Below are positions 34,498 to 64,000 of a stretch of 64,000 bases of DNA, piece by piece. Below the pieces are notes generated by a model, which had not been told where the DNA came from, did no database searches, and saw only the letters and a list, made by a program, of their open reading frames with translations. The DNA is from Candidatus Geohabitans tengchongensis (lineage in GTDB: Bacteria > Sysuimicrobiota > Sysuimicrobiia > Sysuimicrobiales > Humicultoraceae), in the NCBI GenBank assembly GCA_031459625.1, contig JAVKIH010000008.1, positions 18,359-82,358 on the forward strand. Reading direction: 5' to 3'. The position numbers and the translations under genes were made by a program. Numbering within the stretch: the stretch's first letter is position 1; every line of letters begins with the position of its first letter.

Positions 34498-34547
34498 TTT
34501 CTTCCCCGTCGATGGTCGTTCGGCGTGTGGGACTGCGGGGTGGCAGG

Positions 34548-35963: not shown

Positions 35964-36007
35964 GGGCGGGATGCGGAGGTGGCGGCGGTGCGCCACGGGG
36001 GTGAGCG

Positions 36008-38034: not shown

Positions 38035-38037
38035 GCC

Positions 38038-39009: not shown

Positions 39010-39010
39010 C

Positions 39011-46276: not shown

Positions 46277-46301
46277 ATCGGCCGATGTCGGGAGGGACGC
46301 C

Positions 46302-48230
46302 ATGAGGGAGGCACGGACGGGCGAGGTGGAGGTGCGGCTCCCGGAGGGCGAGGTGCGCCGGGTCCCGCGGGGCACGACGCTCTTGAGCCTGGCGGAGGCG
46401 CTGGGGCGGAGCGACGCCCTGGTGGCCCGGGTGAACGGCCGGCTCACCGACCTGCGCGCGCCGCTCACCGAGGACGCCGCGGTCGAGTTCCTCACCTTCG
46501 CCGACGCGGAGGGGCGCGAGGTCTACTGGCACTCCTCGGCGCACCTGCTGGCCCAGGCGGTGAAGGAGCTCTTCCCCCACGCCAGGCTGGCCATCGGGCC
46601 CCCCATCGCCGAGGGGTTCTACTACGACATCGACATCGGGCGGCCATTCACGCCCGAGGACCTGGAGCGCATCGAGGCGCGCATGCGCGAGCTGGCCGCG
46701 CGCGACCAGCCCATCGAGCGGATCGAGCTGCCCCGCGACGAGGCCATCGCCCTCTACACCCGGGCGGGGGAACGCTACAAGCTCGAGCTGCTGGACGACA
46801 TCCCCGACGCCCGTGTCTCCTTCTACCGGCAGGACGGCTTCCTGGACATGTGCCGCGGCCCCCACCTGCCCAGCACCGGGCGGATCAAGGCCATCAAGCT
46901 CCTCTCCACCTCGGGGGCGTACTGGCGGGGCGACGAACGGCGGCCCCAGCTCGCCCGCATCTACGGGGTCACCTTCCCGGATGAGGCGCAGCTCGAGGCG
47001 CACCTGCGCCTGCTCGAAGAGGCCAAGCGGCGGGACCACCGGCGCCTGGGCCCGCAGCTCGAGCTCTTCCTCTTCCACGAGACGGCCCCCGGGATCCCCT
47101 ACTGGCTCCCCCGCGGCCTCAAGGTGCTGCACACGCTGATCGACTTCTGGCGCGCCGAGCACGAGGCCCGCGGCTACCAGGAGATCCGGGCCCCGCTGAT
47201 CAACCGCCGCGAGCTCTACGAGATCTCGGGGCACTGGGAGCACTACCGGGAGCACATGTTCATCGCCGACATGGGCGAAGGCGAGGTCTACGCCCTCAAG
47301 CCGATGAACTGCCCCAACGCCATGGTGGTCTTCCAGAGCCGCACCCGCAGCTACCGCGACCTGCCGCTGCGGCTGGCCGACACCGACATCCTGCACCGCT
47401 ACGAGCGCTCCGGCACCCTCACCGGGCTTTTGCGCGTGCGCGGATTCGTGCAGGACGACGCCCACATCTTCCTCACCGAGGAGCAGATCGCCGACGAGTT
47501 CCGGGAGCTGTTCGCGCTGACGGAGCGGTTCTACGCCATCTTCGGCCTGGCATACCACTTCCGGCTGAGCACGCGACCGCCGGACTTCATCGGCGACCCG
47601 GCGGTGTGGGACCGGGCCGAGGCGGAGCTGCGGCAGATCCTGGAGGCGAGCGGCCGCCCGTTCACCGTCGCCCCCGAGGGCGTCTTCTACGGCCCCAAGA
47701 TCGACATCCTCATGCGGGACTCGCTGAACCGCGAGTGGCAGATGGGGACGCTGCAGCTCGACTTCCAGCTCCCGCGCCGCTTCGGCCTGCGCTACAGCGC
47801 GCCGGACGGCAGCGAGCGCACGCCAGTGGTCATCCACCGCGTCATCTACGGGTCGCTGGAGCGGTTCGTGGGGATTCTCATCGAGCACTTCGCCGGGGCG
47901 CTCCCGCTGTGGCTGGCGCCGGAGCAGGTGCGCGTCCTCTCCATCGCCGACCGCCACGCCCCTTACGCCCGCGAGGTGGCCCAGCGCCTGCGGGCGCAGG
48001 GGCTGCGCGTCCAGGTGGACGACACGAACGAGCGCATCGCCTACAAGATCCGCCAGGCGCAGGTGATGAAGGTCCCGTACATGCTCGTGGTGGGCGACCG
48101 GGAGGTGGAGACGGGGCAGGTGGCCGTGCGCCACCGCGAGACGGGCGACCTGGGCCCGATGGACGTGGACGCCTTCGCCCGGCGCGCCCTGGAGGAGGCC
48201 TCGGCTCCCCTCCGCGGCACCTCCTCCTAA
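46302..48230 (+). CDS. thrS: Threonine--tRNA ligase
   Basis: TGS N-domain, editing-domain motifs (HSSAHLLAQAV, GRPFTPEDLERIE), class II core (FHETAPGIPYWLPRG, RVRGFVQDDAHIF) and anticodon-binding domain. Confidence 0.95.
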   Translation: MREARTGEVEVRLPEGEVRRVPRGTTLLSLAEALGRSDALVARVNGRLTDLRAPLTEDAAVEFLTFADAEGREVYWHSSAHLLAQAVKELFPHARLAIGPPIAEGFYYDIDIGRPFTPEDLERIEARMRELAARDQPIERIELPRDEAIALYTRAGERYKLELLDDIPDARVSFYRQDGFLDMCRGPHLPSTGRIKAIKLLSTSGAYWRGDERRPQLARIYGVTFPDEAQLEAHLRLLEEAKRRDHRRLGPQLELFLFHETAPGIPYWLPRGLKVLHTLIDFWRAEHEARGYQEIRAPLINRRELYEISGHWEHYREHMFIADMGEGEVYALKPMNCPNAMVVFQSRTRSYRDLPLRLADTDILHRYERSGTLTGLLRVRGFVQDDAHIFLTEEQIADEFRELFALTERFYAIFGLAYHFRLSTRPPDFIGDPAVWDRAEAELRQILEASGRPFTVAPEGVFYGPKIDILMRDSLNREWQMGTLQLDFQLPRRFGLRYSAPDGSERTPVVIHRVIYGSLERFVGILIEHFAGALPLWLAPEQVRVLSIADRHAPYAREVAQRLRAQGLRVQVDDTNERIAYKIRQAQVMKVPYMLVVGDREVETGQVAVRHRETGDLGPMDVDAFARRALEEASAPLRGTSS

Positions 48231-48438
48231 CTGGTCGCGCGTCCCGCCGACCGTTCCCTGGCCCTCAGACGAAGCGGCGGGCCTCCGTCGCGCTGGCGAG
48301 GATCCCCAGGTCTTCCAGACAGGGGATGACGGCCAGACCGAGGATGACGGCCGCGGCCAGCGGACGGGCGTCCACGCTGCCTCTCTCCCACCACGCCGGC
48401 GTCCCCCCGAAAAACCACGAACCGTGCCGATTCCTTGA

Positions 48439-50988: not shown

Positions 50989-51152
50989 TCCTCCTGGAGG
51001 GCGGGGGACGGGCCTACGTCCCCGCCACGCACCTCCCCGCCGGCGCGGGTGTCGGGACGGTCCTGCGGCTGCACTGGGAGGTCGAGGGGGTCGCGGACGC
51101 CGCGGAGGTGGCGGCACGCATCGAGGCGCTGCGCCGGGAGGAGCACTGGTGA
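50946..51152 (+). CDS. DUF3006-like small protein (68 aa)
   Basis: MRGLVDRIEDGVAVILLEGGGRAYVPATHLPAGAGVGTVL fits the DUF3006 pattern. Overlaps the annotated comEC 3' end. Confidence 0.5.
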   Translation: MRGLVDRIEDGVAVILLEGGGRAYVPATHLPAGAGVGTVLRLHWEVEGVADAAEVAARIEALRREEHW

Positions 51153-52162
51153 CCGGCTCGGGCACGCCCCCGACCGGCCGGGCGGCACCGTCGCCCGCCC
51201 CGGGGGTGCACCTCTTCGTGGGCGAGGAGGACCTGCTCGTCGAGGAGGGGGTGCGGGCGCTGGTGGACGCGGCGCTCCCCCCCGACGAGCGCGCGCTCAA
51301 CCTCGACGTCCTCGAGGCCGCGGAGACCCCCCTGCCCGACCTCCTGGCCCGGCTCGACACCCTGCCGTTCTTCGGCGCCCTGCGCGTGGTCGTGGTCCGC
51401 GACCTCGACGCCATGCCGCTCGACGCGCAGCGGACGCTGGCCGACTACCTGGAGCGCGGCACCCCGCCGGTGCTCGCCATCTTCACGGCCCGCGCCCTGG
51501 ACCGGGGCGGCCGGCTCTTCAGGGCGCTGCAGGCGGTCGGGCGGATCCATGCCTGCGATCCGCTCACCTGGCGGGAGCTCCCCGCCTGGCTCAGGAGCGA
51601 GGCCGCACGGTTGGGGAAGCGGCTCACGCCCGGGGCCGTGGAAGCGCTGGCGGCGGGCGCCGGCGCCGGGCTGCGGGCCCTGCGGCTGGAGCTGGAAAAG
51701 CTGGCGGCGTACGTCGATGCCCGGGCCCAGATCACCGAGGAGGACGTGCGGGCGGTGGGGGCGCTGGAGAGCGACCCGCGGCTGTTCGCCCTCGCCGACG
51801 CCATCGGGGAACGGCACGTCGGGCGGGCCACCCAGCTGCTGCAGAGCATCCTGGCGCGCGAGCACCCGCTGCCGGTCCTGGGGATGATCGCCCGCCAGTT
51901 CCGCCTGCTGGTGCGCGCCCGGGAGGCGGGGCGCAGCCAGGCGGCCGTAGCCAGGGCGGCGGGCGTCACGCCGTATGTCGCCGGCAAGTTGCTGCGGCAG
52001 GTGACCCGCTATCGAGCCGAAGACTTCCCCGCGATCTTCGCCCTGCTGGAAGAGGCCGACCGGGCTATCAAGTCGACGGGCCAGCCGGAGCTGGCCCTGG
52101 AGACGCTGGTCGTGCAGCTGTGCGCCGGCCCCGGGCGCCGGGGCGACACGGGCGCAGGTTGA
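51149..52162 (+). CDS. holA: DNA polymerase III subunit delta
   Basis: VHLFVGEEDLLVEE...LNLDVLEAAE...LPFFGALRVVVVRD is the HolA N-terminus. Conserved position downstream of comEC and facing rpsT. Confidence 0.8.
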   Translation: MTGSGTPPTGRAAPSPAPGVHLFVGEEDLLVEEGVRALVDAALPPDERALNLDVLEAAETPLPDLLARLDTLPFFGALRVVVVRDLDAMPLDAQRTLADYLERGTPPVLAIFTARALDRGGRLFRALQAVGRIHACDPLTWRELPAWLRSEAARLGKRLTPGAVEALAAGAGAGLRALRLELEKLAAYVDARAQITEEDVRAVGALESDPRLFALADAIGERHVGRATQLLQSILAREHPLPVLGMIARQFRLLVRAREAGRSQAAVARAAGVTPYVAGKLLRQVTRYRAEDFPAIFALLEEADRAIKSTGQPELALETLVVQLCAGPGRRGDTGAG

Positions 52163-52210
52163 GCGGCCGGGATCCGGAGCGGCCGGCCTCCGCGGGTCGG
52201 CAGCGCGGGG

Positions 52211-52498
52211 TCAGGACGCAGAGGCGGCGGTGGCGGCGGCCAGGGCCTCGCGGTGGCGCCGCACCAGTCGGGCCTTGCGGCGGGCGGCGGTGTTCTTGTG
52301 GATGATCCCGCGCGCCGCCGCCTTGTCGATGGCCTTGATCGCCAGCAAGAGCGCCTCCGTATCCCCGGCGCGCGCCCTGCGGGAGAGCGTCTTGATGCGC
52401 GAGCGGACGGCGCGGTTGTGCTCGGCGCGCCGCAGCGACTGCCGGAGCCGCTTGAGACCTGACTTGATGCGCTTGGCCACCGTACACCTCACTGCCAT
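52211..52498 (-). CDS. rpsT: 30S ribosomal protein S20
   Basis: VAKRIKSGLKRLRQSLRRAEHNRAVRSRIKTL...AIDKAAARGIIHKNTAARRKARL; 95 aa. Confidence 0.9.
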   Translation of the reverse strand: MAVRCTVAKRIKSGLKRLRQSLRRAEHNRAVRSRIKTLSRRARAGDTEALLLAIKAIDKAAARGIIHKNTAARRKARLVRRHREALAAATAASAS

Positions 52499-52591
52499 GT
52501 CGGGGTTGCGTTCAGCGCATTGTACCATCGCCCCCGCCCGAGTAGCCACCGCCCCCGCCCGTGCAGCCACCTGGGGGCGGCGGACGCCGCG

Positions 52592-54238
52592 GTGACCCCC
52601 GTCCCCGCCCCACCGGCCAGGGCCCCGTCGGCCACCGGGCACCGCCTGGCCCGGGCCGCCGTCCTCCTGGCCGTGGCCACGGTGTTGAGCCGCCTGCTCG
52701 GGCTCGTCCGCGAGATCGTCACCGCCGCCCTGTTCGGGGCCTCCAACGCCAAGGCCGCCTACGTCATCGGCTACTACCTCCCGTTCTTCATCCAGCGGCT
52801 GCTCCTGGGCGGCACGCTGAGCATCGTCTTCATCCCGACCATCACCGAGTACCTGGCCCGCGGCGACCGGCGGGAGACGGTGCGGGTAACCGCCATCCTC
52901 TTCAACCTGGTCCTCCTCCTGGGCGTGGGGATGGTGCTGGCGGGCCAGGTCCTCGCTCCGCTCCTGGTGCCGGTGGCGGCCCCGGGCTTCCACGCCCAGC
53001 CGGGGCTCGTGCCGCTGGCGGTGGCGCTGATGCGCATCATCTTCGTGGCCATGCTCTTCCTGGCGCTGGCGGTCTTCGCCACCGGCTTCCTGCAGGCGCA
53101 CCAGCGCTTCACCGTGCCGGCGCTGGCGCCGCTCCTCTTCAACGTGGTGATCATCCTGGGGACGCTGTGGCTGGGGCCGCGCGTGGGCATCCACGGCCTG
53201 GCCGTGGCCTGGGTGCTCGGGACGGCGGCGCAGTTCCTCGTCCAGCTGCCGGCCATGGCGCGGAGCGGCTTTCGCTGGCTGCCGCTCCTGGACCTGCGCC
53301 ACCCGGCGGTGCGCCAGCTGGGGCGGCTGGCCGCCCCGGCGATGCTGGGGCTGGCCATCGTGGAGATCAACGCCTACGTGGCCCGCTTCTTCGCCTCCTT
53401 CCTGCCGGTGCAACCCGGCGTGAACGCCGTGGCCGTCCTCGACTACGCCTACGAGGTGATGCAGGCGCCGGTGGGTATCATCGCCATCTCCATCGCCACC
53501 GCCCTCTTCCCCACGCTGGCCCGCCAGGCGGCGGCCCGGGACCGCGGGGCCCTGGCCGCCACCACGGCGCTGGGGCTGCGGATGACGCTCCTCCTCATGC
53601 TCCCGGTGGCCGCGCTCCTCCTGGCGCTGGCGCCCCAGGTGGTGCGGGTGCTCTTCGAGCGCGGCGAGTTCACCCCGGCGGCTACCGCGGCGGTGGCGGC
53701 GGCCCTGCGCGGCTACGCCGTCGGCATGAGCGCCGTCGGCGCCTACTACGTCGTCACGCGCGCCTTCTACGCCCTGCACGACATGGCCACCCCGGTGCGG
53801 GTGGGCGCGCTGGCCGTCCTCCTCAACGCCGTCCTGAACGCGGGGCTCATGCGGGTGCTGGGCGCCACGGGGATCGCGCTAGCGGCGTCCCTGGTGAACC
53901 TGACCAACGTGGGGCTGCTGCTGTGGCTGCTGCGCGCGCGCCTGGGGGCGCTGGAGGGGCGGCGCACCGCCTCGAGCCTGCTGCGCGGCGCGGGGGCGGC
54001 GGCGGCGGCGGCCCTGCTGGCCGCGGCGGTGGCGGTCGCGGCGGACGGCCCGGCGGGAGAGGGCCCGGCCGGAGCGCTGCTGGTCCTGGCGGCCTCCGGT
54101 GGGGTGGGGGTGGTCGCCTACCTCGGGGCGGCCTGGCTGCTGCGCCTAGAGGAGCTGCGCCAGGTGCCCGCGCTGCTGCGGGGCGCGCGCCCGGGCCGTC
54201 TGGAGGCGCGTTTGACAGGGAATTCGGACGTTTGCTAG
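52592..54238 (+). CDS. murJ: Lipid II flippase MurJ
   Basis: VLSRLLGLVREIVTAALFGAS, FLPFFIQRLLLGGTLSIVFIP, and 14-TM MVF architecture. Start ambiguous (TTG 52520 or GTG 52592). Confidence 0.8.
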   Translation: MTPVPAPPARAPSATGHRLARAAVLLAVATVLSRLLGLVREIVTAALFGASNAKAAYVIGYYLPFFIQRLLLGGTLSIVFIPTITEYLARGDRRETVRVTAILFNLVLLLGVGMVLAGQVLAPLLVPVAAPGFHAQPGLVPLAVALMRIIFVAMLFLALAVFATGFLQAHQRFTVPALAPLLFNVVIILGTLWLGPRVGIHGLAVAWVLGTAAQFLVQLPAMARSGFRWLPLLDLRHPAVRQLGRLAAPAMLGLAIVEINAYVARFFASFLPVQPGVNAVAVLDYAYEVMQAPVGIIAISIATALFPTLARQAAARDRGALAATTALGLRMTLLLMLPVAALLLALAPQVVRVLFERGEFTPAATAAVAAALRGYAVGMSAVGAYYVVTRAFYALHDMATPVRVGALAVLLNAVLNAGLMRVLGATGIALAASLVNLTNVGLLLWLLRARLGALEGRRTASSLLRGAGAAAAAALLAAAVAVAADGPAGEGPAGALLVLAASGGVGVVAYLGAAWLLRLEELRQVPALLRGARPGRLEARLTGNSDVC

Positions 54239-54250
54239 GGTGGGAGCGGG

Positions 54251-54277
54251 TTAGCACTCAACAAGGGAGAGTGCTAA
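54251..54277 (+). promoter_or_regulatory. CIRCE operator (HrcA binding site)
   Basis: TTAGCACTC-aacaaggga-GAGTGCTAA: exact consensus inverted repeat with 9-nt spacer, ending 3 nt before the hrcA ATG. Confidence 0.85.
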
Positions 54278-54279
54278 CG

Positions 54280-55314
54280 ATGATGCCGGCGCTCGACGAC
54301 CGCAAGCGGCGCATCCTCCAGGCCGTGGTCCGCGAGTACATCCACTCCGCCGAGCCGGTCTCGTCCGAGGTAGTGTTGCGCCGTACCAACCTGCCGGTGA
54401 GCCCGGCCACGGTCCGCAACGAGATGGCTGCGCTGGAAGAGCTGGGGTACCTGCAGCAGCCCCACACCTCCGCCGGCCGCATCCCCACCGACCGGGCCTA
54501 CCGCCTCTACATCGAGGCCCTCCTGGAGGAGGCGGAGCTGCGGCCGGAGGAGCGGCAGCGGCTGCGCCGGCAGCTGCGGGCGCTGGCCGAGGAGGCTGAC
54601 CGGTTGATCCAGCGCGCCGCGCGGGCGCTGGCCGAGGAAGCCCACTACGCCTCCCTGGCCGCCACTCCGCGGCGGGGTGAGCAGGTCTTCCGTCACCTGC
54701 ACCTGGTGCCGCTGGAGCGCGCGCGGGTCCTGCCCGTCCTGATCACCGACGCCGGCACCTACCAGGGCTACCCGGTGGACCTGGGGGAGCCGGTCGACCC
54801 CGACCAGGTCGAGCAGTTCTCCCGCTGGCTGAGTGCCCGCCTGGCCGGGCTGACGCTCGGAGAGCTCACCCGCGACCGGCTGTGGGCGACCATCGGTGCG
54901 GTGGCGCACTTCCAGCGCCTGCTCGAGCAGCTGCGCCGGTGGCTCGACCGGGGGGTGCGCCGCCGGGTCGGACGAGTGATCGTGGAGGGGGCCCCGCACC
55001 TGCTGGAGCAGCCGGAGTTCCGGCAGATCGACGCGGCTTCGGCGGTGCTGGCGGCCCTCGAGCGGGAGGAGGTGCTGCTGGAGCTGCTGCGTCCCGCGGC
55101 CGGTCACCGGGTGTGGGTGGCCATCGGCAGCGAGCTCCCCTTCCCGGCGATGCGGGAGTGCAGCATCGTGGCCGCCACCTACTCGGTGGGAGACCGGGTG
55201 GCGGGGACGCTGGCCCTGCTCGGCCCGCGCCGCATGCACTACGACCGGACCCTGCCGCTGGTGCGCTTCCTCGCGGACTCCCTCAGCGAGGCCTTGACGG
55301 ACCTGGGGGGCTGA
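54280..55314 (+). CDS. hrcA: Heat-inducible transcription repressor HrcA
   Basis: MMPALDDRKRRILQAVVREYIHSAEPVSSEVVLRRTNLPVSPATVRNEMAALEELGYL is the canonical HrcA N-terminus. Confidence 0.9.
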   Translation: MMPALDDRKRRILQAVVREYIHSAEPVSSEVVLRRTNLPVSPATVRNEMAALEELGYLQQPHTSAGRIPTDRAYRLYIEALLEEAELRPEERQRLRRQLRALAEEADRLIQRAARALAEEAHYASLAATPRRGEQVFRHLHLVPLERARVLPVLITDAGTYQGYPVDLGEPVDPDQVEQFSRWLSARLAGLTLGELTRDRLWATIGAVAHFQRLLEQLRRWLDRGVRRRVGRVIVEGAPHLLEQPEFRQIDAASAVLAALEREEVLLELLRPAAGHRVWVAIGSELPFPAMRECSIVAATYSVGDRVAGTLALLGPRRMHYDRTLPLVRFLADSLSEALTDLGG

Positions 55315-55366
55315 CGTACTCAGAGGGCCGAAGCGCGGGGCCCCGTCCCGCGCCCCGCCCACGGCC

Positions 55367-56491
55367 ATGGCGAAGGACTACTACGCGACCCTGGGCATCC
55401 GCCGCGACGCCTCGCAGGAGGAGATCAAGCAGGCCTACCGCCGCCTGGCGCGCGAGTACCACCCCGACGTGCGCCGGGACGACCCCCAGGCCAACGAGCG
55501 CTTCAAGGAGATCAACGAAGCCTACGCCGTCCTCAGCGACCCGGCGCGGCGGGCGCAGTACGACCGCTTCGGCCGGGTGGACGAGGTGCCGGCCGTCGAC
55601 CCCACCGACCTCTTCGGCTCCTTCGACGACCTCTTCGACATGTTCTTCGGCGGCGGGCCGCGGCGGACCCGGACGCGCGTGCGCCCGGTCGAGGAGGAGG
55701 AGGCGGTCGCCGGCGCGGACCTGCGGGCGGAGGTGGAGGTCACCCTCGAGGAGGCCGCCAGCGGGGTGGAGAGAACCCTCACCCTCACCCGCCTGGAGAC
55801 CTGCCCCGTCTGCTTCGGCACCGGCCGCGAGCCCAACACCAGCGTGGAGACCTGTCCCACCTGCGCGGGGACGGGACAGGTGCGCTACCACCACCAGACG
55901 GTCTTCGGCTACCTGACCCAGGTCGTCACCTGCCGGCAGTGCGGCGGGCGGGGCCGGGTGGTGCGGCACCCCTGCCGCGCCTGCGGCGGCGCCGGGCGGC
56001 GCGAGGCGGAGCGCCAGGTGACCGTCCGCATCCCGCCGGGAGTGGAGACGGGCACCCGCCTGCGCGTCCCGGAGGAGGGGGAGGCGGGCGTGCGCGGGGG
56101 CCCGCGCGGGGACCTCTACGTGGTGGTCCGCGTGCTGCCGCACCCGCGCTTCACCCGGCAGGGGCGCGACCTGATCTGTGAGGTCCCGGTCTCCATGCTG
56201 CAGGCGGCCCTGGGGGACGAGATCGAGATCCCGGCGCTGGGCGAGACGCTACGCATCGCCATCCCGCCGGGGACGCAGCCCGGCGCCGCGCTGCGCCTGC
56301 GGGGGCAGGGGATGCCCGACCTGCAGGGCGGCCGGGGGGACCTGTACGTGCGCCTGCGCGTGGAGATCCCGCGGGACCTCACGCCGGAGCAGCGCCGGCT
56401 GCTGAAGCAGGTGGCGGACCTGCGCGGCGAGCGGGTCCAGCCCCAGCGCCCCTCTCTATGGAAGAAAATGAAGGACCTCTTCACGGCCTGA
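55367..56491 (+). CDS. dnaJ: Molecular chaperone DnaJ
   Basis: J domain (DYYATLGIRRDASQEEIKQAYRRLAREYHPD), G/F region, four CxxCxGxG zinc-finger repeats, and C-terminal domains. Confidence 0.9.
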   Translation: MAKDYYATLGIRRDASQEEIKQAYRRLAREYHPDVRRDDPQANERFKEINEAYAVLSDPARRAQYDRFGRVDEVPAVDPTDLFGSFDDLFDMFFGGGPRRTRTRVRPVEEEEAVAGADLRAEVEVTLEEAASGVERTLTLTRLETCPVCFGTGREPNTSVETCPTCAGTGQVRYHHQTVFGYLTQVVTCRQCGGRGRVVRHPCRACGGAGRREAERQVTVRIPPGVETGTRLRVPEEGEAGVRGGPRGDLYVVVRVLPHPRFTRQGRDLICEVPVSMLQAALGDEIEIPALGETLRIAIPPGTQPGAALRLRGQGMPDLQGGRGDLYVRLRVEIPRDLTPEQRRLLKQVADLRGERVQPQRPSLWKKMKDLFTA

Positions 56492-57465
56492 CCGCGGGCG
56501 CAGCGCCGGCAGAGCCGGCGTCTGTCCTCCCCCGCTTCGTGGTGGTACGGGTGCGGGCGGCGCCGGCGGCGGCCGAGGCGGCGGCGGCTCTCCTGCACGA
56601 GGCGGCCCCTCCGGGCGTGGAGGAGCGGCGCCAGGGGGACGACGTGGTCCTGGTCGCCTATCTGCCCGCAGAGCTCGCGCCCCGCCTGGTGTCCGGCCTG
56701 CGCGCGCGCCTCGAGGCCCTCCCGCGCTACGGGCTCGGGGAGGCGCCCACCGTGGCGGTGGAGCCGCTGGCCGAGGAGGAGTGGGCCACGGCCTGGCGCC
56801 GCCACTTCCACCCCTTCCCGGTCGGCCGGCGCCTCTGGATCGCGCCCTCGTGGGCGCCCGGGGACCCGCCCGACGGACGGCTGGCCGTCCGCATCGACGC
56901 CGGATTGGCCTTCGGCAGCGGCCTGCACGCCTCGACGCGTCTGTGCCTGGAGCTCCTCGAGGACCTGGTCCGGCCCGGCGTCACCGTAGTGGATGTGGGC
57001 ACCGGCTCCGGCATCCTGGCGGTGGCGGCGGCGAGGCTGGGAGCGGCGCGGGTGGTGGCCACCGACCTCGACCCGGTGGCGGCCCAGGCCGCGGCGCAGG
57101 CGGTCCGGGCGAACGACCTGCGCGGTGTCGTCGCCGTCGTGGTGGCCGACCTGCTCGCTCCGGTACGTCGCCCCATGGACCTGATCGTGGCCAACCTCAC
57201 CGCGGACCTGCTCGAGCGCCTGGCGCTGCACGTGCCCGCGGCGCTCTCCCCGGAGGGCCGGTTCATCGCCTCGGGGATCGCCGCCGCGCAGGCCGCGCGG
57301 GTCCGGGAGGCGCTCGCCGCGGCGGGGCTGGCAGTGGTGCGCGAGCGCGTGCGAGAAGGGTGGCACGCGCTGGTGGCGCAGCTGTTGCCCGAGGGGCGGG
57401 CGTCGATGGCGCAGCCGCAGTCGGACGGATCAGCGTGGGCAGAGTCGTCGTCCGTCGCGCGGTGA
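56458..57465 (+). CDS. prmA: Ribosomal protein L11 methyltransferase
   Basis: WRRHFHPFPVGRRLWIAPSW, LAFGSGLHASTRLCLELLE, VVDVGTGSGILAVAAARLGA, ANLTADLL. Only ATG available, overlapping the dnaJ end. Confidence 0.85.
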   Translation: MEENEGPLHGLTAGAAPAEPASVLPRFVVVRVRAAPAAAEAAAALLHEAAPPGVEERRQGDDVVLVAYLPAELAPRLVSGLRARLEALPRYGLGEAPTVAVEPLAEEEWATAWRRHFHPFPVGRRLWIAPSWAPGDPPDGRLAVRIDAGLAFGSGLHASTRLCLELLEDLVRPGVTVVDVGTGSGILAVAAARLGAARVVATDLDPVAAQAAAQAVRANDLRGVVAVVVADLLAPVRRPMDLIVANLTADLLERLALHVPAALSPEGRFIASGIAAAQAARVREALAAAGLAVVRERVREGWHALVAQLLPEGRASMAQPQSDGSAWAESSSVAR

Positions 57466-58208: not shown

Positions 58209-58287
58209 TGCGTGCGGGGCGGCCGGGTTCCCGTTACACCGGTGTGACGGCGGCCGTCGTATAGTGAGGGGTGGAGGTGAGGACCCG

Positions 58288-58743
58288 ATGCGCTTCGTCA
58301 CCGTGCTCGGTGTGGTCGGCCTGCTGCTCCTGGGGCTGGCCGGCGTGGGCTATCCGGAATACAACTACCAGCAGCAGACCCCCGCCGCGCCTGCCGCGGG
58401 GGTGAAGCAGCAGATCCAGACGGCGGCCACCCACTCCGGGTTCGCCGCCGGCGGGCAGTCGCTGGCCTACGTGCAGCAGCACCTGGGCCATGCCCTCAAC
58501 TGCATCGAGGGCAAGGGCGGGCGGAACTTCAACGCGGCCTGGGGGCACGTCTGCGAGGGGCAGGGGAACGGCATCCTCAACGACCTCCGGGGGGTCTCCG
58601 GCGGTGCGGCCGTGCGCCCGCTGGTGGAGCACGCCGACGGCCTGGCTGTCACCGGGGTCAAGACCCGCGACCTGGCCACGGCGCGGGCCGCAGCGGCGGG
58701 CGTCAGCGCTCTGCTCAAGGTGGCCGCGGAGTACCTGAAGTAA
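58288..58743 (+). CDS. Hypothetical secreted protein (151 aa, two Cys)
   Basis: MRFVTVLGVVGLLLLGLAGVG signal/anchor; mature part Gln/Ala/Gly-rich with CIEGKGGRNFNAAWGHVCEGQGNG. No family recognisable. Convergent overlap with the nucleotidyltransferase gene. Confidence 0.4.
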   Translation: MRFVTVLGVVGLLLLGLAGVGYPEYNYQQQTPAAPAAGVKQQIQTAATHSGFAAGGQSLAYVQQHLGHALNCIEGKGGRNFNAAWGHVCEGQGNGILNDLRGVSGGAAVRPLVEHADGLAVTGVKTRDLATARAAAAGVSALLKVAAEYLK

Positions 58744-59827
58744 CGGCCCCCCACAGCCGACGGAGCCAGCGGCGGCGTCCTGCGGCGAGCGGCTGGGGGA
58801 TCCACACCAGCCGGCCCACCCACCGCAGGAAGTCCGCAGGGGCCTCTCCTCCCAGCCACCGCAGGAGCCCCACCTGCACGATAGCGCTGAGGGCAGCCTC
58901 CTCCCGCAGGAGGCGGGCCTGCAGGCGGGCGGTCAGGCGGCGCGCCAGATAGGGCCACCGTCCCCCCTCCAGCACCGCCAGGGCCTCTGCCGGCACCGGT
59001 GCGCCGAACAGGTCGGCCGCCAGCGCCACCGCCACCTGGACGGTGCGGCGCGCCTCCACGCAGACGGCACCGGCGAAGGTCCAGTCCACGCCGCCGCGCG
59101 CCGCCACTTCGGCGATGTCGCGGATGTAGCGGGCGCGGGGGCGGCCGTACCACAGCTCGCGCATCCAGAAGACGGCCAGCCCCACGATCAGGTCGGCGGG
59201 CGCGGGGAGGAGGGCCTGGGCGCCGGCCACGTCTACCGGTCTCGCCCGGCAGGCCACGGCGTCGTGGTCGAGCGGCAGGAGGTGCGGGTAGCCGGCATAG
59301 CGCCAGTGCAGGTCCACCGGCAGGGTCAGGCCTGACGGCGGCATGTACCCGCGGGCGCTACGCCAAGTGCGGTCGGCCGCGCTGGGGGCTCCGCCGGCGA
59401 TGCGGTAGCCCAGCGCGCAGAGCGCCCGGTGCGCGGCGTTGACCGTCTCCGGGGCGACGAGGAGGTCCAGGTCGTGCATGGGGCGCAGCGCGGGATCGGG
59501 GTAGGTTGCCCGCGCCAGCGCCGCGCCCTTCAGCAGGAGCGGGCGGACCCCTTCACGGTTCAGGGCCGAGAGCACCGCGGCCAGCTCCATCTCCACCCGG
59601 ACCGCCCGCTGCGCGGCCCGCTCGGACGCGGAGGCCAGCTCGCGCGCCACCGGCCCGGGCACGGTCACCCCGGCCCGCCGGATGCCGTCCCAGAGCAGCG
59701 GGATGACCTGTTCCCGCCTCGCCAGGCGATGCACGGCGTCCCAGTCGGTGGGGAGGTCCGGCGGGAGGGGCTCGAGGTGCAGCAGCCGGAGGAAGGTCCG
59801 CTCGAACGGGTAGAGGCGCGGCGGCAT
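58715..59827 (-). CDS. Nucleotidyltransferase family protein (PF14907-like, as found in kinase-containing lasso-peptide-type clusters)
   Basis: MPPRLYPFERTFLRLLHLEP...LLKGAALARATYPDPALRPMHDLDLLVAPETVNAAHRALCALGY; the hG..R...DLDLLV nucleotidyltransferase core and ~370-aa size match the 'uncharacterised nucleotidyltransferase' family. Confidence 0.6.
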   Translation of the reverse strand: MPPRLYPFERTFLRLLHLEPLPPDLPTDWDAVHRLARREQVIPLLWDGIRRAGVTVPGPVARELASASERAAQRAVRVEMELAAVLSALNREGVRPLLLKGAALARATYPDPALRPMHDLDLLVAPETVNAAHRALCALGYRIAGGAPSAADRTWRSARGYMPPSGLTLPVDLHWRYAGYPHLLPLDHDAVACRARPVDVAGAQALLPAPADLIVGLAVFWMRELWYGRPRARYIRDIAEVAARGGVDWTFAGAVCVEARRTVQVAVALAADLFGAPVPAEALAVLEGGRWPYLARRLTARLQARLLREEAALSAIVQVGLLRWLGGEAPADFLRWVGRLVWIPQPLAAGRRRWLRRLWGAVTSGTPRPP

Positions 59828-59856
59828 CAGGGCCGGACGCGGCCACGGCGCCGTGC

Positions 59857-60663
59857 TCAATAGGCGCTGAGCGTGCCGGACCGCCGGGCCTCCGCAAAGC
59901 TCCAGTGCAGGGCGAGCAAGCCCAGCGGGACGAGCGCGGCGGCAAAGGCGGCCAGGACGAGCACCTCGCCGCGCAGGCCGGCCGCCCCTGTCCCCTCCAG
60001 CAGGACGAGCCGCATGGCGCGCAGCGCGTGGGTCATCGGCAGCCACTCCCCCAGCCGCTGCAGGGGTGCCGGGAGGACGGTGGTGGGATAGAAGAGGCCG
60101 CCCACCAACGCCGAGGCGGCGGCGATCGGCGCGGTCAGCGGATCGGGCTGGCGGGTGAGGAGGACGTAGGCTGCGGCGAGCCAGCCCACGGCCAGGAAGG
60201 TCGCCCCCGAGAGCCCCAGGACCACGAGGGCGGCGGCCAGGTTGGCTCGAGCGATCGGCAGGCCGAAGAAGACCTCCCCCACCCACAGGGAGAGGGCCGC
60301 CTGCCCGAGGCCCAGCAGGACCGGCCACAGCGACAGGCCCAGCGCCAGCGTCCCCACTGCACAGGGCGTGGCGGCCAGGCTCTCCAGCGTGCCGGCCACC
60401 TGCTCCTGGCGCAGCGCGGCCGGGCAGGCGCGCATCACCGCGGTGAGGAAGCCGAAGAAGGCCACGCCGACGAGCGCGAAGGCGAAGTAGCCCGCCGGGC
60501 GCCCCGATGCCGGATCCGGTGCGGGGACCAGGCGTCCCAGGTAGTAGAGGGTGGCGGCGGTGAACCCCACGCCCGCGGCCTGCCAGGCCGGCGCCAGGCG
60601 CGCCGTCCCCGCGGCGATGCTGTCACGCCGGAGAAACGCCCACAACTGGAAGAGCAGGGCCAC
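59857..60663 (-). CDS. ABC-2 type transporter permease (exporter membrane subunit)
   Basis: 268-aa 6-TM ABC-2 permease starting VALLFQLWAFLRRDS (GTG) inside ORF 59857..61053. Downstream of, and overlapping, its ATPase partner. Confidence 0.75.
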   Translation of the reverse strand: MALLFQLWAFLRRDSIAAGTARLAPAWQAAGVGFTAATLYYLGRLVPAPDPASGRPAGYFAFALVGVAFFGFLTAVMRACPAALRQEQVAGTLESLAATPCAVGTLALGLSLWPVLLGLGQAALSLWVGEVFFGLPIARANLAAALVVLGLSGATFLAVGWLAAAYVLLTRQPDPLTAPIAAASALVGGLFYPTTVLPAPLQRLGEWLPMTHALRAMRLVLLEGTGAAGLRGEVLVLAAFAAALVPLGLLALHWSFAEARRSGTLSAY

Positions 60664-61408
60664 GCGTCTCCTCCACGGCCGCCTCGTAGCACGCCCGCAC
60701 GCGCGCCGCTCCACCCTCCCCGACGGCCACCACCTCGCGCAGGCGCCCGCCTGCGAGGATGCCCACACGGTCGCACACGCCGGCCGCCTCCTCGAAGTCG
60801 TGCGTCGCCAGCAGAACGGTGCGGCCCTCTGTGCTGGCCAGGTGGCGTACCAGCGCCCGGAAGGCGTCAGCCGCCTGGGGGTCGAGGCTGCGCGTCGGCT
60901 CGTCGAGGCAGAGGACGGGCTGGCCGCCCACGAGCGCCCGGGCGAGCAGGAGCCGCTGGCGCATCCCCGTCGAGTACCGGGCCACGACCTGGTCGGCCGC
61001 CTCGGTGAGTCCCACCTGCCCGAGCGCCGCTTCGGCCCGCCGGCGCGCTTCACCCGGCGCGCAGCCGAGCAGGCCCGCGAAGAAGATCAGGTTGTCCCGC
61101 CCGGAGAGCCGCCAGTAACAGGCGCGCTCGTCCCCCGTGACCAGCGCCACGCGCCGCCGCACCAGCGTCGGCTCCCGCACCACGTCCGCGCCCAGGATGC
61201 GGGCCGTGCCGCCGGACGGGAGGAGGAGGGTGGTCAGGATCTTGAGCAGAGTGGTCTTGCCGGCGCCGTTCGGACCCAGCAGGCCGAAGATCTCTCCCGC
61301 CTCGACCTGCAGGGTCACGTCCCACAGGGCGTCCACCGGGCGATGGGCCCCGAGCGGCCAGCGCCCGCGGAAGCGCTTGGTCAGGGAGGAGGTCTCGACC
61401 GCCGCCAC
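60623..61408 (-). CDS. ABC transporter ATP-binding protein (exporter)
   Basis: Walker A GPNGAGKTT, Q-loop, signature YSTGMRQRLLLARAL, Walker B LCLDEPTRSLD, H-loop LATHD. Start taken at GTG (VAAVETSSLTKRF); further in-frame GTGs lie upstream within a tandem repeat. Confidence 0.8.
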   Translation of the reverse strand: MAAVETSSLTKRFRGRWPLGAHRPVDALWDVTLQVEAGEIFGLLGPNGAGKTTLLKILTTLLLPSGGTARILGADVVREPTLVRRRVALVTGDERACYWRLSGRDNLIFFAGLLGCAPGEARRRAEAALGQVGLTEAADQVVARYSTGMRQRLLLARALVGGQPVLCLDEPTRSLDPQAADAFRALVRHLASTEGRTVLLATHDFEEAAGVCDRVGILAGGRLREVVAVGEGGAARVRACYEAAVEETRGPALPVVGVSPA

Positions 61409-61473
61409 GACCCATTCAGTACCGGGGAGGACCGGAGACTTCCTGTCTACGGTGCGTGCCGTCGGCCGCCGCT

Positions 61474-61560
61474 GTTCCCCGCCGGTCTTGCGCCCTCGGG
61501 CCGCCACCGTTCCCGCGCCGGTCTTGCGCGCCCTCGGCCGCCACCACCCTCGGCCGCCAC
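61474..61560. repeat. Tandem direct repeat (~36 bp x 2.4) in the 5' region of the exporter ATPase gene
   Basis: gttccccgccggtcttgcgccctcgggccgccacc / gttcccgcgccggtcttgcgcgccctcggccgccacc / accctcggccgccac. On the coding strand each unit supplies an in-frame GTG-GCG-GCC (VAA) codon run. Confidence 0.45.
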
Positions 61561-61666
61561 GGCTCCTGTGTCGTTTGCACGATGGTACTCCTGCATTCGA
61601 CGGATAGGCGGTGCGTGCTGCCGTCCATACACTGGAAAGGCGCCAGGAACACCCAGGGGGTCATCA

Positions 61667-62311
61667 ATGTGGTGGCGAGGGGGGATTCGCTCGGCAAGCA
61701 TCCCACTCGCGGGAGGGGTCGAGTCGATCTCTCCTCGCGTCCCTCCACCGCCACCACCTCCACCGCCAGCACCGCCCCCCGGCGGCGGGCCTCCCGGCGC
61801 CATCCTGATCCCCCTCATCCCGCTGATCCTGCTGATCATCGGCGCTCCACCGGTGGTGGAGCAGCCACCTCCGCCGGTGGTCCAGGTCACCCCGACGCCT
61901 CCCCCTGAGGCCGCCCCGACACCGTCACCCGCGGCCGAAGCGCCCCCGTCGCCTCCTCCGCCTTCCCCGGCGCCGACTCCAGGTGTCCTCCCGCCCACCG
62001 TGGCGCCCACAGCGCCGCCGGCGCCGCCCGCTGCCGCTGTGACGCCCGGCCCGCCCGCGCGCCCCCGGCCCACGCCGATCGTCCTCGGCCCCCCCGCACC
62101 GGCGCCCGCACCTGCCGCGCCTGCACCGCCTGCTCCTGCGGCTGCAGCGCCGCCACCGGTCCGGGCGGTGGCCACGCCACCCCCCGCCGCCCCGCCGCCC
62201 GGGGCGGTGCTTCCCTTCGGAGGCGCCCGCCTGTGGATCCCGGTGGCGCTGGGCCTGGGCCTGGTGGGCACGGGGTACCTCCTCCTCCGCCGGAACGCCA
62301 GGGCGGGGTGA
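61667..62311 (+). CDS. Pro/Ser/Thr-rich membrane protein with C-terminal sorting-signal-like tail
   Basis: MWWRGG..., poly-Pro tract, TM (AILIPLIPLILLIIGA), ~120-aa Pro/Ala/Thr/Ser-rich extended region, then ...GAVLPFGGARLWIPVALGLGLVGTGYLLLRRNARAG (motif, hydrophobic segment, basic tail). Stop overlaps the sortase GTG (GTGA). Confidence 0.5.
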   Translation: MWWRGGIRSASIPLAGGVESISPRVPPPPPPPPPAPPPGGGPPGAILIPLIPLILLIIGAPPVVEQPPPPVVQVTPTPPPEAAPTPSPAAEAPPSPPPPSPAPTPGVLPPTVAPTAPPAPPAAAVTPGPPARPRPTPIVLGPPAPAPAPAAPAPPAPAAAAPPPVRAVATPPPAAPPPGAVLPFGGARLWIPVALGLGLVGTGYLLLRRNARAG

Positions 62312-62937
62312 GCGCCCTGCGGACGCTGGGTCTTGTCCTGATGGTGGTGGGCGGGCTGCTACTGGCGGCACCCGCCTTCTGGTCGGTCTACACGGGGCGG
62401 GGGGCCGAAGCGGCGCAGACCGCGGCCCTGGCCGAGTGGGAGCGCGCCCTGACCGACGGCCAGACGGTAGCGGAGGAACGGACGACCCAGGTGGATCGCA
62501 GGGCGGCTGCCGGCACCCTGCGCCCGGCCGAAGGGCTCGTCCTCACCATCCCGCGTCTGGGGTTGCGCCGCTTCGTCCCAGAAGGGGCCCGGCCCGAACA
62601 CCTGCGCCGCTTCGGCCTGGGACGCATCTCCTGGACGGCCCGGCCCGGCCAGGCCGGTGTGGTCGGCATCGCCGGTCACCGCACCACGCATGGGGCGCCC
62701 TTCTTCCGCCTGCCCGCCCTGCGGCCCGGCGACGAGGTGCTGCTCGAGGACGGGCGGCAGCGCTATCTCTACCGCGTGGCGGAGCAGCGCACCGTCCGCC
62801 CGACCGCGGTGGAGGTCCTGCGCGGTGAGGCCGGCCGCCGTCGCCTCGCCCTGGTCACCTGTACCCCGGCCTACAGCGCCGCCTACCGCCTCGTGGTGCT
62901 GGCCGACCTGCAGCGCGTCCAGGTGGCGGCCCCGTGA
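62308..62937 (+). CDS. Sortase (class E-like transpeptidase)
   Basis: N-terminal TM anchor, catalytic His (VVGIAGHRTTHGAPFFRL), and active-site Cys in LALVTCTP (TLxTC motif). Confidence 0.8.
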   Translation: MSALRTLGLVLMVVGGLLLAAPAFWSVYTGRGAEAAQTAALAEWERALTDGQTVAEERTTQVDRRAAAGTLRPAEGLVLTIPRLGLRRFVPEGARPEHLRRFGLGRISWTARPGQAGVVGIAGHRTTHGAPFFRLPALRPGDEVLLEDGRQRYLYRVAEQRTVRPTAVEVLRGEAGRRRLALVTCTPAYSAAYRLVVLADLQRVQVAAP

Positions 62938-62947
62938 CCGCGGTCGC

Positions 62948-63280
62948 GTGACTGGCCCCGTGACCGGCGGTCCCGTAACCGCTCCGTCCAGTGCGCCGGG
63001 CGACTCGGGCCCCAGGCTGGCCGCCCGCTTTGCCACGGAGGCCGCCCGCTTTGCCGCGGAAGTCGTCCTCTTCGACCCGGAAGACGGCCGGCTGGTCGTC
63101 CTCTCGGGCGCTGCCGCCAGCGTCTGGACCGCGTGCGACGGCCGGGCCACCGACGAGGTGGCCCGGGCGGCGGGCCTGGGGGTGGGCCGCGTGCGCCGGA
63201 TCCTGCGCGACCTCGAGCGCGCAGGTGCCGTGGCCCGCGAGGGCGCAGGGTGGCGCCGGCGGGTGTGCGTGGAGGTCTGA
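62948..63280 (+). CDS. PqqD-family protein (RiPP recognition element-type peptide-binding chaperone)
   Basis: EVVLFDPEDGRLVVLSGAAASVWTACDGRATDEVARAAGLGVGRVRRILRDLERAGAV is a textbook PqqD/RRE domain. ~35-aa Gly/Pro/Thr-rich N-terminal extension; GTG start (62948 or 62960) just after the sortase stop. Confidence 0.7.
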   Translation: MTGPVTGGPVTAPSSAPGDSGPRLAARFATEAARFAAEVVLFDPEDGRLVVLSGAAASVWTACDGRATDEVARAAGLGVGRVRRILRDLERAGAVAREGAGWRRRVCVEV

Positions 63281-63282
63281 GC

Positions 63283-64000
63283 GTGAGCGCGCATGCGGGC
63301 CTGCGTGTGGCGCAGCACGAGGCCCGGGGCTCCGAGGGCGAGCGGGAGGGCGTGGCCGCTCTTTCGGGCGCGCCCGGTCTTGCGGGCGCGCCTGCGGAGG
63401 CCGGGTCTCGCAGCGGGTGGCGCAAAACCGGCTGGACCGTACGGGTGCACGCGGCGCCGGGCTCACCGCAGGGCTTGAGGGGAGCCCGGCTGCAGACACT
63501 GCTCGCCGCGCTGGACCTCTGCGGGCTCCGCCTGCCTGCCCTCGAGGTGGAGCTGGGCGCTGACGGGTGGGCCGTCGGCCGCGTCGGGGGAGAGGCCCTG
63601 TGGCGCATCCGCCTGCCGGAGACGCGAGCGCTCTCGGTGCTGCTCGGGCAGTGCACCGCCACCGCCCTCCACTTGGCCGACCGTCTCTTCCTGCACGCCG
63701 GCGTGGTGGCGGTGCGCGGACGGGCGGTGGTGCTGGCCGGCCCGAGCGGGGCGGGGAAGACCAGCCTGGTGGCCGCGCTGCTGGCGCAGGGGGCGACCTA
63801 CCTCTCCGACGAGGTGGCCTGGCTCCCCCTGCCGGACAGTGTGCCGACCAGTGTGCAGGTGCCGGACGGCGTGCGGGCGCCGGACCGTGTACAGAGCCGG
63901 CACGACGGTGGCCCGTTCAAGGGAGCGCCGTGCGCCTTCCCCTTCGCCCTGCCGCTCGCCATCAAACCGTGGACGTTGCGCGCTCTCGGGACCCTGCCCT
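63283..64000 (+). CDS. HprK-related P-loop Ser kinase (3' partial; continues beyond window end)
   Basis: Hand translation of + frame from GTG 63283 is stop-free to the window edge and contains LFLHAGVVAVRGRAVVLAGPSGAGKTSLVAALLAQGATYLSDEVAW. This is the HPr kinase/phosphorylase C-terminal P-loop domain, as in the HprK-like kinases of lasso-peptide-type clusters. It is not in the ORF track because no stop lies in the window. Confidence 0.6.
   Translation, partial: MSAHAGLRVAQHEARGSEGEREGVAALSGAPGLAGAPAEAGSRSGWRKTGWTVRVHAAPGSPQGLRGARLQTLLAALDLCGLRLPALEVELGADGWAVGRVGGEALWRIRLPETRALSVLLGQCTATALHLADRLFLHAGVVAVRGRAVVLAGPSGAGKTSLVAALLAQGATYLSDEVAWLPLPDSVPTSVQVPDGVRAPDRVQSRHDGGPFKGAPCAFPFALPLAIKPWTLRALGTLP

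Follow-up and report, generated by a model that had tools for sequence, protein, structure and literature searches.

A class-E-like sortase, its putative Pro-rich LPx[G/T]G substrate and a PqqD/HprK-like gene pair form a conserved cassette in Candidatus Geohabitans tengchongensis and related uncultured bacteria

We analyzed a 64,000-nucleotide (nt) stretch of Candidatus Geohabitans tengchongensis (GenBank assembly GCA_031459625.1, contig JAVKIH010000008.1, positions 18,359 to 82,358 of the forward strand), referred to below as the window, in which four adjacent genes encode a Pro-rich membrane protein, a sortase, a PqqD-like protein and an HprK-like kinase. An earlier note on this DNA had described the Pro-rich protein as a possible sortase substrate embedded in a cluster of modification genes; it is called the substrate here for brevity. 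The genes and the parts of their products, numbered by window position and in amino acids (aa), are as follows.

61667..62311, plus strand: substrate gene, encoding a 214-aa protein predicted to form a membrane hairpin (open reading frame (ORF) with homologs upstream of the sortase in the clade loci defined below)
61685..61735, plus strand: conserved N-terminal motif IRSASIPLAGGVESISP, residues 7-23, with the invariant Ser22-Pro23 (alignment of homologs)
61796..61846, plus strand: first transmembrane (TM) segment, TM1, a predicted signal-anchor, GAILIPLIPLILLIIGA, residues 44-60 (mean Kyte-Doolittle value 2.68; equivalent segment in all homologs)
61847..62209, plus strand: Pro/Ala-rich spacer of 121 aa, a predicted extracytoplasmic stalk (composition)
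62210..62224, plus strand: sorting pentapeptide LPFGG, residues 182-186, of an LPx[G/T]G family (aligned tails)
62225..62308, plus strand: post-motif ARLWIP, TM2 with conserved Gly spacing, and basic tail RRNARAG (invariant W+4, invariant G, L and G in TM2, and a basic residue)
62308..62937, plus strand: class-E-like sortase of 209 aa with an N-terminal TM anchor (Pfam PF04203, 2.9e-28, 98.6 bits against 26.6)
62677-62679, 62860-62862 and 62887-62889, plus strand: sortase catalytic residues His124, Cys185 and Arg194, respectively (invariant in 21 sequences)
62942..63280, plus strand: PqqD-like protein of the recognition element (RRE) type known from peptides that are made by ribosomes and modified after translation (RiPPs), with the domain at about 63017-63277 (Pfam PqqD PF05402, 26.7 bits against 23.4)
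63283..64000, plus strand: P-loop kinase, HprK-like, 341 aa in full and truncated where the window ends (TIGR04352, HprK_rel_A, 2e-12)
63739-63765, plus strand: kinase Walker A motif GPSGAGKTS (sequence)

The substrate product reads MWWRGGIRSASIPLAGGVESISPRV-P9-APPPGGGPP-GAILIPLIPLILLIIGA-(121-aa Pro/Ala spacer)-LPFGG-ARLWIPVALGLGLVGTGYLLL-RRNARAG, with a poly-Pro/Gly stretch at residues 24-43. Its ATG at 61667 lies behind an AGGGGG Shine-Dalgarno-like run, and its TGA stop (62309-62311) is overlapped by the GTG start of the sortase gene at 62308, forming a GTGA junction.

The organization of these genes was compared across 172 loci carrying a sortase homolog, gathered from exact-protein lookups and two collection scans, whose six-frame ORFs were scanned with small hidden Markov models (HMMs) built from four cassettes. 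Loci with a sortase of at least 236 bits were defined as the clade (25 loci, about 14 distinct sequences) and those with a sortase of at most 145 bits as the comparison set (146 loci, class-E-type); individual loci are cited by L numbers. In 25 of 25 clade loci, wherever the contig reaches, the substrate gene lies immediately upstream of the sortase gene and the PqqD-like gene immediately downstream, followed by the HprK-like gene, whereas none of the 146 comparison loci showed a PqqD-like or HprK-like ORF within 5-6 kb of the sortase, and an upstream ORF with a sorting signal was present in only three of 120 class-E control loci. The four clade genes overlap or are spaced by no more than 60 nt, translational coupling extends from the substrate through the kinase in most loci, and no other conserved ORF was found in the four-gene operon; an 82-aa upstream ORF of L007, considered as an alternative precursor, is not conserved. 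In two relatives, L017 (874-2175, 434 aa) and L097 (1-882), no stop codon separates substrate and sortase, so that the ORF is fused as assembled, and the fused polypeptide is topologically consistent. The translational coupling of enzyme and substrate that the earlier note had read from their stop/start overlap is supported by the GTGA of the window and by these fusions. The flanking genes are fully different between loci (rsmE/argC, SDR/amidase, MFS/HU, TRAP/formamidase), which indicates that the cassette is maintained as a unit. Across the sampled loci, the comparison shows the putative substrate, the sortase, the PqqD-like RRE protein and the HprK-like kinase to be an always-linked four-gene operon. 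As a separate observation, L097 also has a good Shine-Dalgarno sequence and an ATG for a separate sortase start.

The GC content of the window is 70-78% throughout, and many long spurious ORFs are consequently present in it. In public annotations the substrate gene is systematically truncated or placed on the wrong strand. The NCBI annotation of this region contains only the last 47 aa (62168-62311), and the Logan annotation gives a 274-aa Gly-rich ORF on the antisense strand instead (61447-62271, minus strand); a search with the tail profile described below recovered the same C-terminal truncation, as calls of 36-77 aa, across many assemblies (e.g., P0274-P0281). An exact-protein lookup of the 214-aa product accordingly returned no record, as no annotator calls this gene in full, and full-length plus-strand substrate genes were called in L007, L009 and L011. 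The GC content at third codon positions (GC3) is 0.77 in the substrate gene against 0.87-0.97 in the neighboring genes, and the mirror antisense frame gives an identical profile; codon-position GC was consequently discarded as proof of the frame, being uninformative. Codon position 3 accounts for 23 of the 32 substitutions relative to the 95%-identical L093, a test that cannot tell the strands apart since the mirror antisense frame shares this position. In terms of stop-codon occupancy across distant loci, the plus frame is free of stops in nine of nine loci with a full 5' end, and every antisense frame is interrupted in L009, L094, L096 and L100. Conservation of the ORF extends to about 14 distinct loci, and the N-terminal motif and C-terminal tail are common to substrates whose sortases are only about 50% identical. 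Because only the plus frame is open across distant loci, the comparative alignments show the Pro-rich ORF to be a genuine gene, at exactly the coordinates that the earlier note had given for it.

The C-terminus of the substrate has the tripartite order of a sorting signal, comprising LPFGG, a hydrophobic stretch of about 19 aa within the next 22 residues, and RRNARAG, and this order is kept in all homologs. Thirteen aligned tails follow the consensus xVLPx[G/T]GAxLWxP-x3-G-x2-L-x3-G-x4-R(R), with L, P, the final G, W, two TM glycines and one leucine invariant. The pentapeptides are distributed among the loci as follows.

LPFGG: window, L093, L100
LPYGG: L007, L009, L014, L094, L096, L097
LPRGG: L017
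LPFTG: L011, L013, L015, L016, L098
LPYTG: L095

The non-canonical sorting signal proposed in the earlier note is supported by the six relatives that exhibit LPFTG or LPYTG at the same position, one of which passes the LPXTG_anchor model TIGR01167 (LPYTG ortholog P0274, 18.4 against a cutoff of 15.9); these indicate that LPFGG is a natural LPxTG variant. The LPYGG ortholog in L009 scores 11.5 with this model, and the window LPFGG protein, whose pentapeptide is not LPxTG, gave no match to it. Judged from the aligned tails, LPx[G/T]G is a genuine variant of the sorting signal, and in its LPxGG forms Gly takes the place of the P1 Thr. No other six-frame ORF of the window with 60 aa or more has a sorting-signal-like tail, and a 43-aa tail profile run against 5.8 billion proteins detected LPx[GT]GxxLWxP only on the Pro-rich family and on no multidomain cargo. 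Separately, the substrate ortholog of L009 (7278-7991) runs about 55 aa past the basic tail and bears a third hydrophobic segment and a second basic tail.

The sortase, recognized in the earlier note from its His and TLxTC-like Cys motifs, yielded an AlphaFold2 (AF2) model (predicted local distance difference test, pLDDT, 84) with the sortase beta-barrel. A profile search for its class placed it nearest to class E, the NCBIfam class E model NF033747 being the best-scoring one at 114.1 bits, below its cutoff of 160; the best PDB matches by sequence and predicted fold were likewise class E sortases of Streptomyces and Thermobifida. In SrtE1, Tyr229 of the beta3/beta4 loop (MVGHY) has been credited with the LAxTG preference by Kattke et al. 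(PMC5148588). This Tyr aligns with Ile107 of the window sortase (GLGRI), and the clade motif G(V/L)G(R/H)(I/M)(S/T)WT, with Ile or Met throughout, stands against GPGHY in actinobacterial outgroups. The replacement of Tyr229 by Ile fits Pro rather than Ala at P3, and the cognate tails are LP[FYR][GT]G, not the LAxTG of class E. By its sub-cutoff class E score and the Ile at the Tyr229 position, the sortase clade is class-E-like but distinct at the sequence level. The position three residues after the catalytic Cys (Cys+3; Ala188, 62869-62871) is occupied by Ala or Val in every LPxGG locus and by Phe, Trp or Pro in every LPxTG locus, including within the L100/L011 sister pair, and in a neighbor-joining tree of the sortases the T/G state changes at least twice. 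This pattern is a hint of enzyme-substrate co-variation and only a hint, owing to the small sample and the phylogenetic relatedness of the loci. The residue six positions after the catalytic Arg (Leu200 in the window) was also observed as L/V in LPxGG and F in LPxTG loci. One further locus, L101 (sortase 170 bits), was unclassifiable, being a 1.4-kb fragment, apparently truncated or chimeric, behind a sigma/anti-sigma pair. At its positions 297-1046, which lie downstream of an ECF sigma factor, an anti-sigma-like zinc-finger N-terminus is joined to part of a sortase; the fragment keeps the clade-specific GLGRISWT motif, lacks the catalytic Cys region and may be chimeric.

The substrate had been described in the earlier note as carrying one TM helix and a Ser/Thr-rich low-complexity region, and both descriptions need to be corrected. 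Two hydrophobic segments are present, TM1 and the TM2 of the tail, and the spacer is Pro/Ala-rich and poor in Ser/Thr (P 44, A 24, V 10, T 7 and S 2%). In the homologs the spacer measures 68-122 aa, its sequence is not conserved, and it contains 0-8% Ser and 1-12% Thr. Pro-Pro follows directly after TM1, so there is no signal-peptidase site and a cut is not expected. The predicted cytoplasmic part comprises residues 1-43 (with Arg4, Arg8 and Arg24) and includes the motif [IVL][KRT][IV][AQ]x[IL]P[LF]xxG[VA]xxxSP, which begins 3-7 residues from the start codon in every locus with a 5' end. In view of this conservation, we propose the motif as the site of recognition and modification in the cytoplasm. 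Hydrophobic residues alternate along it in a way that suits capture as a beta-strand by an RRE, and the invariant Ser-Pro could plausibly accept a phosphate. The Pro-rich region itself, which the earlier note had suggested as a possible modification target, is predicted to be extracytoplasmic and, given its unconserved and Ser/Thr-poor sequence, was abandoned in this role; the conserved N-terminal motif appears the better candidate, since ATP-dependent kinases act in the cytoplasm and it is the only conserved cytoplasmic element in the membrane proteins of the operon. The accompanying suggestion that PqqD and HprK act on the Pro-rich protein instead of a small RiPP precursor thus holds in part: strict linkage in the clade, set against none of the 146 controls, lends it strong comparative support, and no other conserved small ORF fits the operon, but the Pro-rich region does not qualify as the target.

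Among the PqqD-like orthologs, that of L009 reaches 23.9 bits and the others fall below the PF05402 cutoff of 23.4; the orthologs align as a typical beta-beta-helix-helix-helix-beta unit. The window fragment of the kinase obtained 46.8 bits with TIGR04352, the equivalog cutoff of which is 200. The Gly, Lys and Thr of the kinase P-loop and the Asp of SDE (LSDEVA) are invariant in 12 orthologs. With its AF2 model (pLDDT 69.5), Foldseek retrieved ATP-dependent phosphoenolpyruvate carboxykinase (PEPCK) and HprK/P at probabilities of 0.97-1.0 and low TM-scores of 0.15-0.37, and HprK 1KO7 was the best meaningful PDB profile match (E=0.015). The invariant Walker A motif and Asp, together with the predicted PEPCK/HprK fold, support the competence of the kinase. 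An exhaustive kinase profile search of 1.84 billion representatives returned nine sequences at E<=1e-30 and, after a gap, 1836 at E<=1e-10; the next 30 relatives outside the clade all match TIGR04352 below its cutoff. In two of three sampled outgroup kinase loci (L173 and L174), PqqD is adjacent and no sortase is present. Since such pairs occur without a sortase, the PqqD/HprK-like pair is, as far as these sequences indicate, a widespread autonomous module, one small branch of which is tied to the sortase clade. An insertion of about 30 aa (PLPDSVPTSVQVPDGVRAPDRVQSRHDGGPFKG, at about 63823-63922, pLDDT <50) was observed after SDEVA in the window kinase and is missing from its orthologs. An apparent 227-nt insertion in L001 (about 10987-11182), lying between the PqqD and kinase genes, was rejected as a scaffolding artefact in which an N-run with duplicated flanks shifts the NCBI gene call.

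Other features surround the four genes.

60623..61408, minus strand: ATP-binding cassette (ABC) transporter ATPase, accessory, of a divergent operon (Pfam ABC_tran 7.9e-30; gene call from L001)
59857..60663, minus strand: ABC-2 type permease, accessory (Pfam ABC2_membrane; gene call from L001)
58715..59860, minus strand: NTP_transf_5 nucleotidyltransferase (NTase), last gene of the divergent operon (PF14907 1.4e-43, 149.7 bits against 31.2)
61409..61666, no strand: divergent intergenic region with a 110-nt repeat insert at 61453-61562 (direct repeats)
34482-41073, plus strand: TolC-type tripartite efflux operon (TolC-like PF02321, 203 bits; HlyD-type adaptor at 35971-38034; two ABC ATPases; ABC-2 permease)

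NTP_transf_5 is present in L001, L009, L015, L093, L094, L096 and L098, weak or partial in L016, and absent from L007, L011 and L100, and the ABC ATPase occurs in most, not all, cassettes. The NTase, which the earlier note had named alongside PqqD and the kinase, and the ABC exporter are hence accessory and not part of the core. A PDB sequence search with the NTase gave no match. A gene for a secreted CAP-domain protein (PF00188) was found in the L007, L009, L011, L015, L094, L096, L098 and L100 cassettes; the window has the NTase and ABC genes and no CAP gene. At the CAP position, 58264-58743 (plus strand) encodes a predicted secreted protein of 151-159 aa that has no Pfam or NCBIfam match and is not CAP-homologous by HMM. 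The 110-nt insert, located between the ABC ATPase and substrate genes, is GC-rich, with internal direct repeats of 17-22 nt; it is absent from the 95-97% identical L093, and the 100 nt preceding the ATG are conserved. Neither an Rfam scan covering the substrate gene and its 5' region nor a promoter/terminator scan of 61300-64000 gave a match.

Directly upstream of the cassette, at 46221-57465, the gene order is thrS, comEC, holA, rpsT (minus strand), murJ, hrcA, dnaJ, prmA and rsmE, and argC-argJ-argB-argD follow directly downstream of the kinase in the species of the window (from L001/L002), so that the window cassette is bounded by rsmE and argC and looks inserted between conserved housekeeping blocks. 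The TolC-type efflux operon suggests an outer membrane, i.e., a diderm host. The sortase may consequently act in the periplasm, an unusual setting that changes what wall anchoring by a sortase means here. Source records of the cassette-bearing metagenome-assembled genomes (MAGs) list Armatimonadota and some Bacillota.

Taken together, these features can be read as a dedicated sortase that would anchor the stalk to the wall while the PqqD/kinase pair, with the accessory NTase and ABC proteins, would modify the N-terminus, a reading to which we assign an even chance. The substrate would insert as a hairpin, with its N-terminal 40 residues in the cytoplasm, TM1 as an uncleaved signal-anchor, the Pro/Ala stalk outside, and TM2 leading back to a basic tail inside. 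The dedicated sortase would cut within LPFG|G and pass the new C-terminus of the stalk to a peptidoglycan or lipid II amine, yielding a product with one end bound covalently to the wall and the other held in the cytoplasmic membrane by TM1. On the cytoplasmic side, the PqqD-type recognition element might bind the strand-like N-terminal motif ending in the invariant Ser-Pro, and the HprK-like kinase might phosphorylate this motif. Where a nucleotidyltransferase is present, the phosphate could be further decorated, by analogy with phosphorylated and glycosylated lasso peptides; an HPr-kinase homolog and a nucleotidyltransferase are known to modify ribosomal peptides (PMC8498205). The more specific version, in which an RRE and an HPr-kinase-like enzyme, with an optional nucleotidyltransferase, modify the N-terminal tail and a private LPxG|G sortase (Gly at P1) fixes the tether to the wall of a diderm, resulting in a covalent, modification-controlled link between inner membrane and wall, is put forward tentatively and is clearly less probable; RiPP-type machinery would in that case be coupled for the first time to surface anchoring by a sortase.

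Several points weigh against this dedicated-sortase reading. Gly at the scissile P1 is not known for any characterized sortase class, so that cleavage of LPFGG would be without precedent. The hairpin topology (N-terminus in, stalk out, C-terminus in) is predicted from hydropathy and charge only, and RRE binding to the N-terminal motif is pure inference. The 25 of 25 clade loci do not represent 25 independent events, as they descend from one ancestral cassette, and the pairing evidence is at the level of the locus; other sortases or substrates may exist elsewhere in these genomes. All cassette hosts are uncultured MAGs, and all evidence is comparative. The lasso analogy is also loose, because the characterized lasso kinases act on a C-terminal Ser (PMC8498205) and the substrate family has no conserved C-terminal Ser.

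The best-surviving alternative, which we judge possible but doubtful, keeps the cognate sortase-substrate pair and assigns PqqD/HprK (and NTase/ABC) to something else, such as a peptide encoded elsewhere, the sortase or an envelope component other than a protein, the linkage then reflecting a shared envelope function or regulation. The frequency of PqqD and HprK-like pairs without a sortase (L173, L174 and the 1836 relatives at E<=1e-10) would be expected under it, as would the missing C-terminal Ser that lasso kinases need. It is harder to reconcile with an operon that has no room for another conserved ORF, the extra one of L007 being unconserved, with the substrate-to-kinase coupling of most loci, and with a strongly conserved cytoplasmic N-terminal peptide for which no other role is obvious.

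Two further explanations concern the sortase and its signal, and we regard each of them as unlikely. If the enzyme were a general housekeeping sortase and the Pro-rich protein one of its many substrates, adjacent by chance, class E housekeeping sortases would indeed be expected as its closest relatives by sequence and fold. Yet the tail is conserved beyond the pentapeptide (LWxP and the TM2 Gly pattern), as is typical of private recognition, its profile finds the substrate family alone and no multidomain cargo, substrate and sortase form a single ORF in two loci, the cassette changes its neighborhood as a unit, and upstream substrates are rare in class E loci (the three of 120 mentioned above). 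Alternatively, the LPxGG protein might escape cleavage and, as a pseudo-substrate or membrane partner, occupy or regulate the sortase, or the enzyme might act only as a maturation protease without wall attachment. The Thr-to-Gly change at P1 does remove the residue through which the acyl-enzyme forms in all characterized sortases (PMC5148588), and the LPXTG_anchor model fails on LPxGG members. However, the catalytic His, Cys and Arg are invariant in the LPxGG lineages too, and T and G were swapped at least twice on the tree together with a neighboring active-site change, which looks like retuning and not like loss of function. Lastly, the possibility that the 214-aa ORF is an artefact arising from the composition of a genome with 74% GC, with the antisense Gly-rich ORF or the 47-aa piece as the real gene, is in our view very remote and largely refuted by the comparisons: although the lower GC3, the public annotations and the inability of the close L093 comparison to separate the plus frame from one antisense frame would suit it, the antisense frames are broken in several relatives and the plus frame is open in all, the N-terminal motif, which lies 500 nt upstream of the 47-aa piece, shows conservation as protein with a start codon 3-7 codons before it, and full-length plus-strand calls exist in L007, L009 and L011.

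Should the dedicated-sortase reading be true, sortase specificity would extend to Gly at the scissile P1, and the natural T/G switches with their paired active-site residue could guide the engineering of sortase ligation tools. PqqD-type elements and HPr-kinase homologs would then have as their substrate not a small peptide but a molecule of protein size embedded in the membrane, and the widespread uncharacterized HprK-related kinase A/PqqD module, with thousands of relatives, would obtain its first concrete candidate substrate. The envelope of an uncultured, poorly known and probably diderm lineage would also gain a new component, a Pro-rich stalk that joins wall and cytoplasmic membrane covalently. 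The parts are all of known kinds (a sortase, an LPxTG-type signal, an RRE, an HprK-like kinase and NTP_transf_5), and dedicated pairs are known as well. In the literature searched, we found no description of a sortase-substrate pair obligately coupled to a PqqD/HprK module, of a sorting motif with a P1 Gly, or of a substrate that has a conserved cytoplasmic N-terminus and otherwise comprises just an anchor, a stalk and a sorting signal.

Regarding known systems, the class E sortases S. coelicolor SrtE1, S. avermitilis SrtE and T. fusca SrtE, the best sequence and fold matches at 30-39% identity, share with the window sortase the N-terminal TM anchor, the His-Cys-Arg triad and the motifs GHRTT(Y/H)GAPF and (T/S)C(T/A/S)PxYSA. 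They differ in having the Tyr of GxGHY where the clade has Ile in G(V/L)GRI(S/T)WT, in their LAxTG signal as opposed to LPx[G/T]G, and in their loci, since the clade sortase is always operon-linked to one substrate and to PqqD/HprK. An example of a dedicated sortase-target pair is the TIGR03784 family, the class GN "marine" sortase of some Gram-negative bacteria, which likewise combines one sortase with an adjacent, private, variant-motif substrate; the host of the window cassette, too, is probably diderm. The window sortase matches TIGR03784 weakly (50 bits against 158), and the window substrate, unlike those of that system, lacks a globular passenger domain and retains a membrane anchor at its N-terminus; to our knowledge, no PqqD or kinase partners are known for the TIGR03784 system.

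Lasso peptide tailoring, as in paeninodin and pseudomycoidin (PMC8498205), brings together like enzyme types, namely a PqqD-type RRE, an HprK-like kinase, an NTase and an ABC exporter, acting on a ribosomal product, the likeness of the NTase being one of enzyme type. The target here is a membrane protein of 160-240 aa, as opposed to a lasso precursor of about 40 aa, a sortase is present, and the substrate C-termini vary (G, S, R, E, P) and do not provide the lasso-type C-terminal Ser acceptor. Neither a lasso cyclase (Asn-synthetase-like C) nor a B2 leader peptidase was found in or near the cassette (L001, L002, L007, L009, L011), and a lasso-peptide cluster was discarded for want of cyclase and protease. 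HprK-related kinase A (TIGR04352 with an adjacent PqqD-family protein) provides the nearest profile for the kinase; the window fragment falls below its cutoff, the sortase-linked kinases form a separate small subfamily, and no description of the function of the TIGR04352 system was found in the searched literature. Lpp (Braun lipoprotein) and TonB are held in a membrane at one end, are fixed to or reach the wall at the other, and possess an extended Pro-rich spacer and no enzymatic domain. Their resemblance to the substrate is a functional analogy without homology, and the substrate differs from them in that its attachment would be made by a sortase instead of an L,D-transpeptidase and its anchor would lie in the cytoplasmic membrane.

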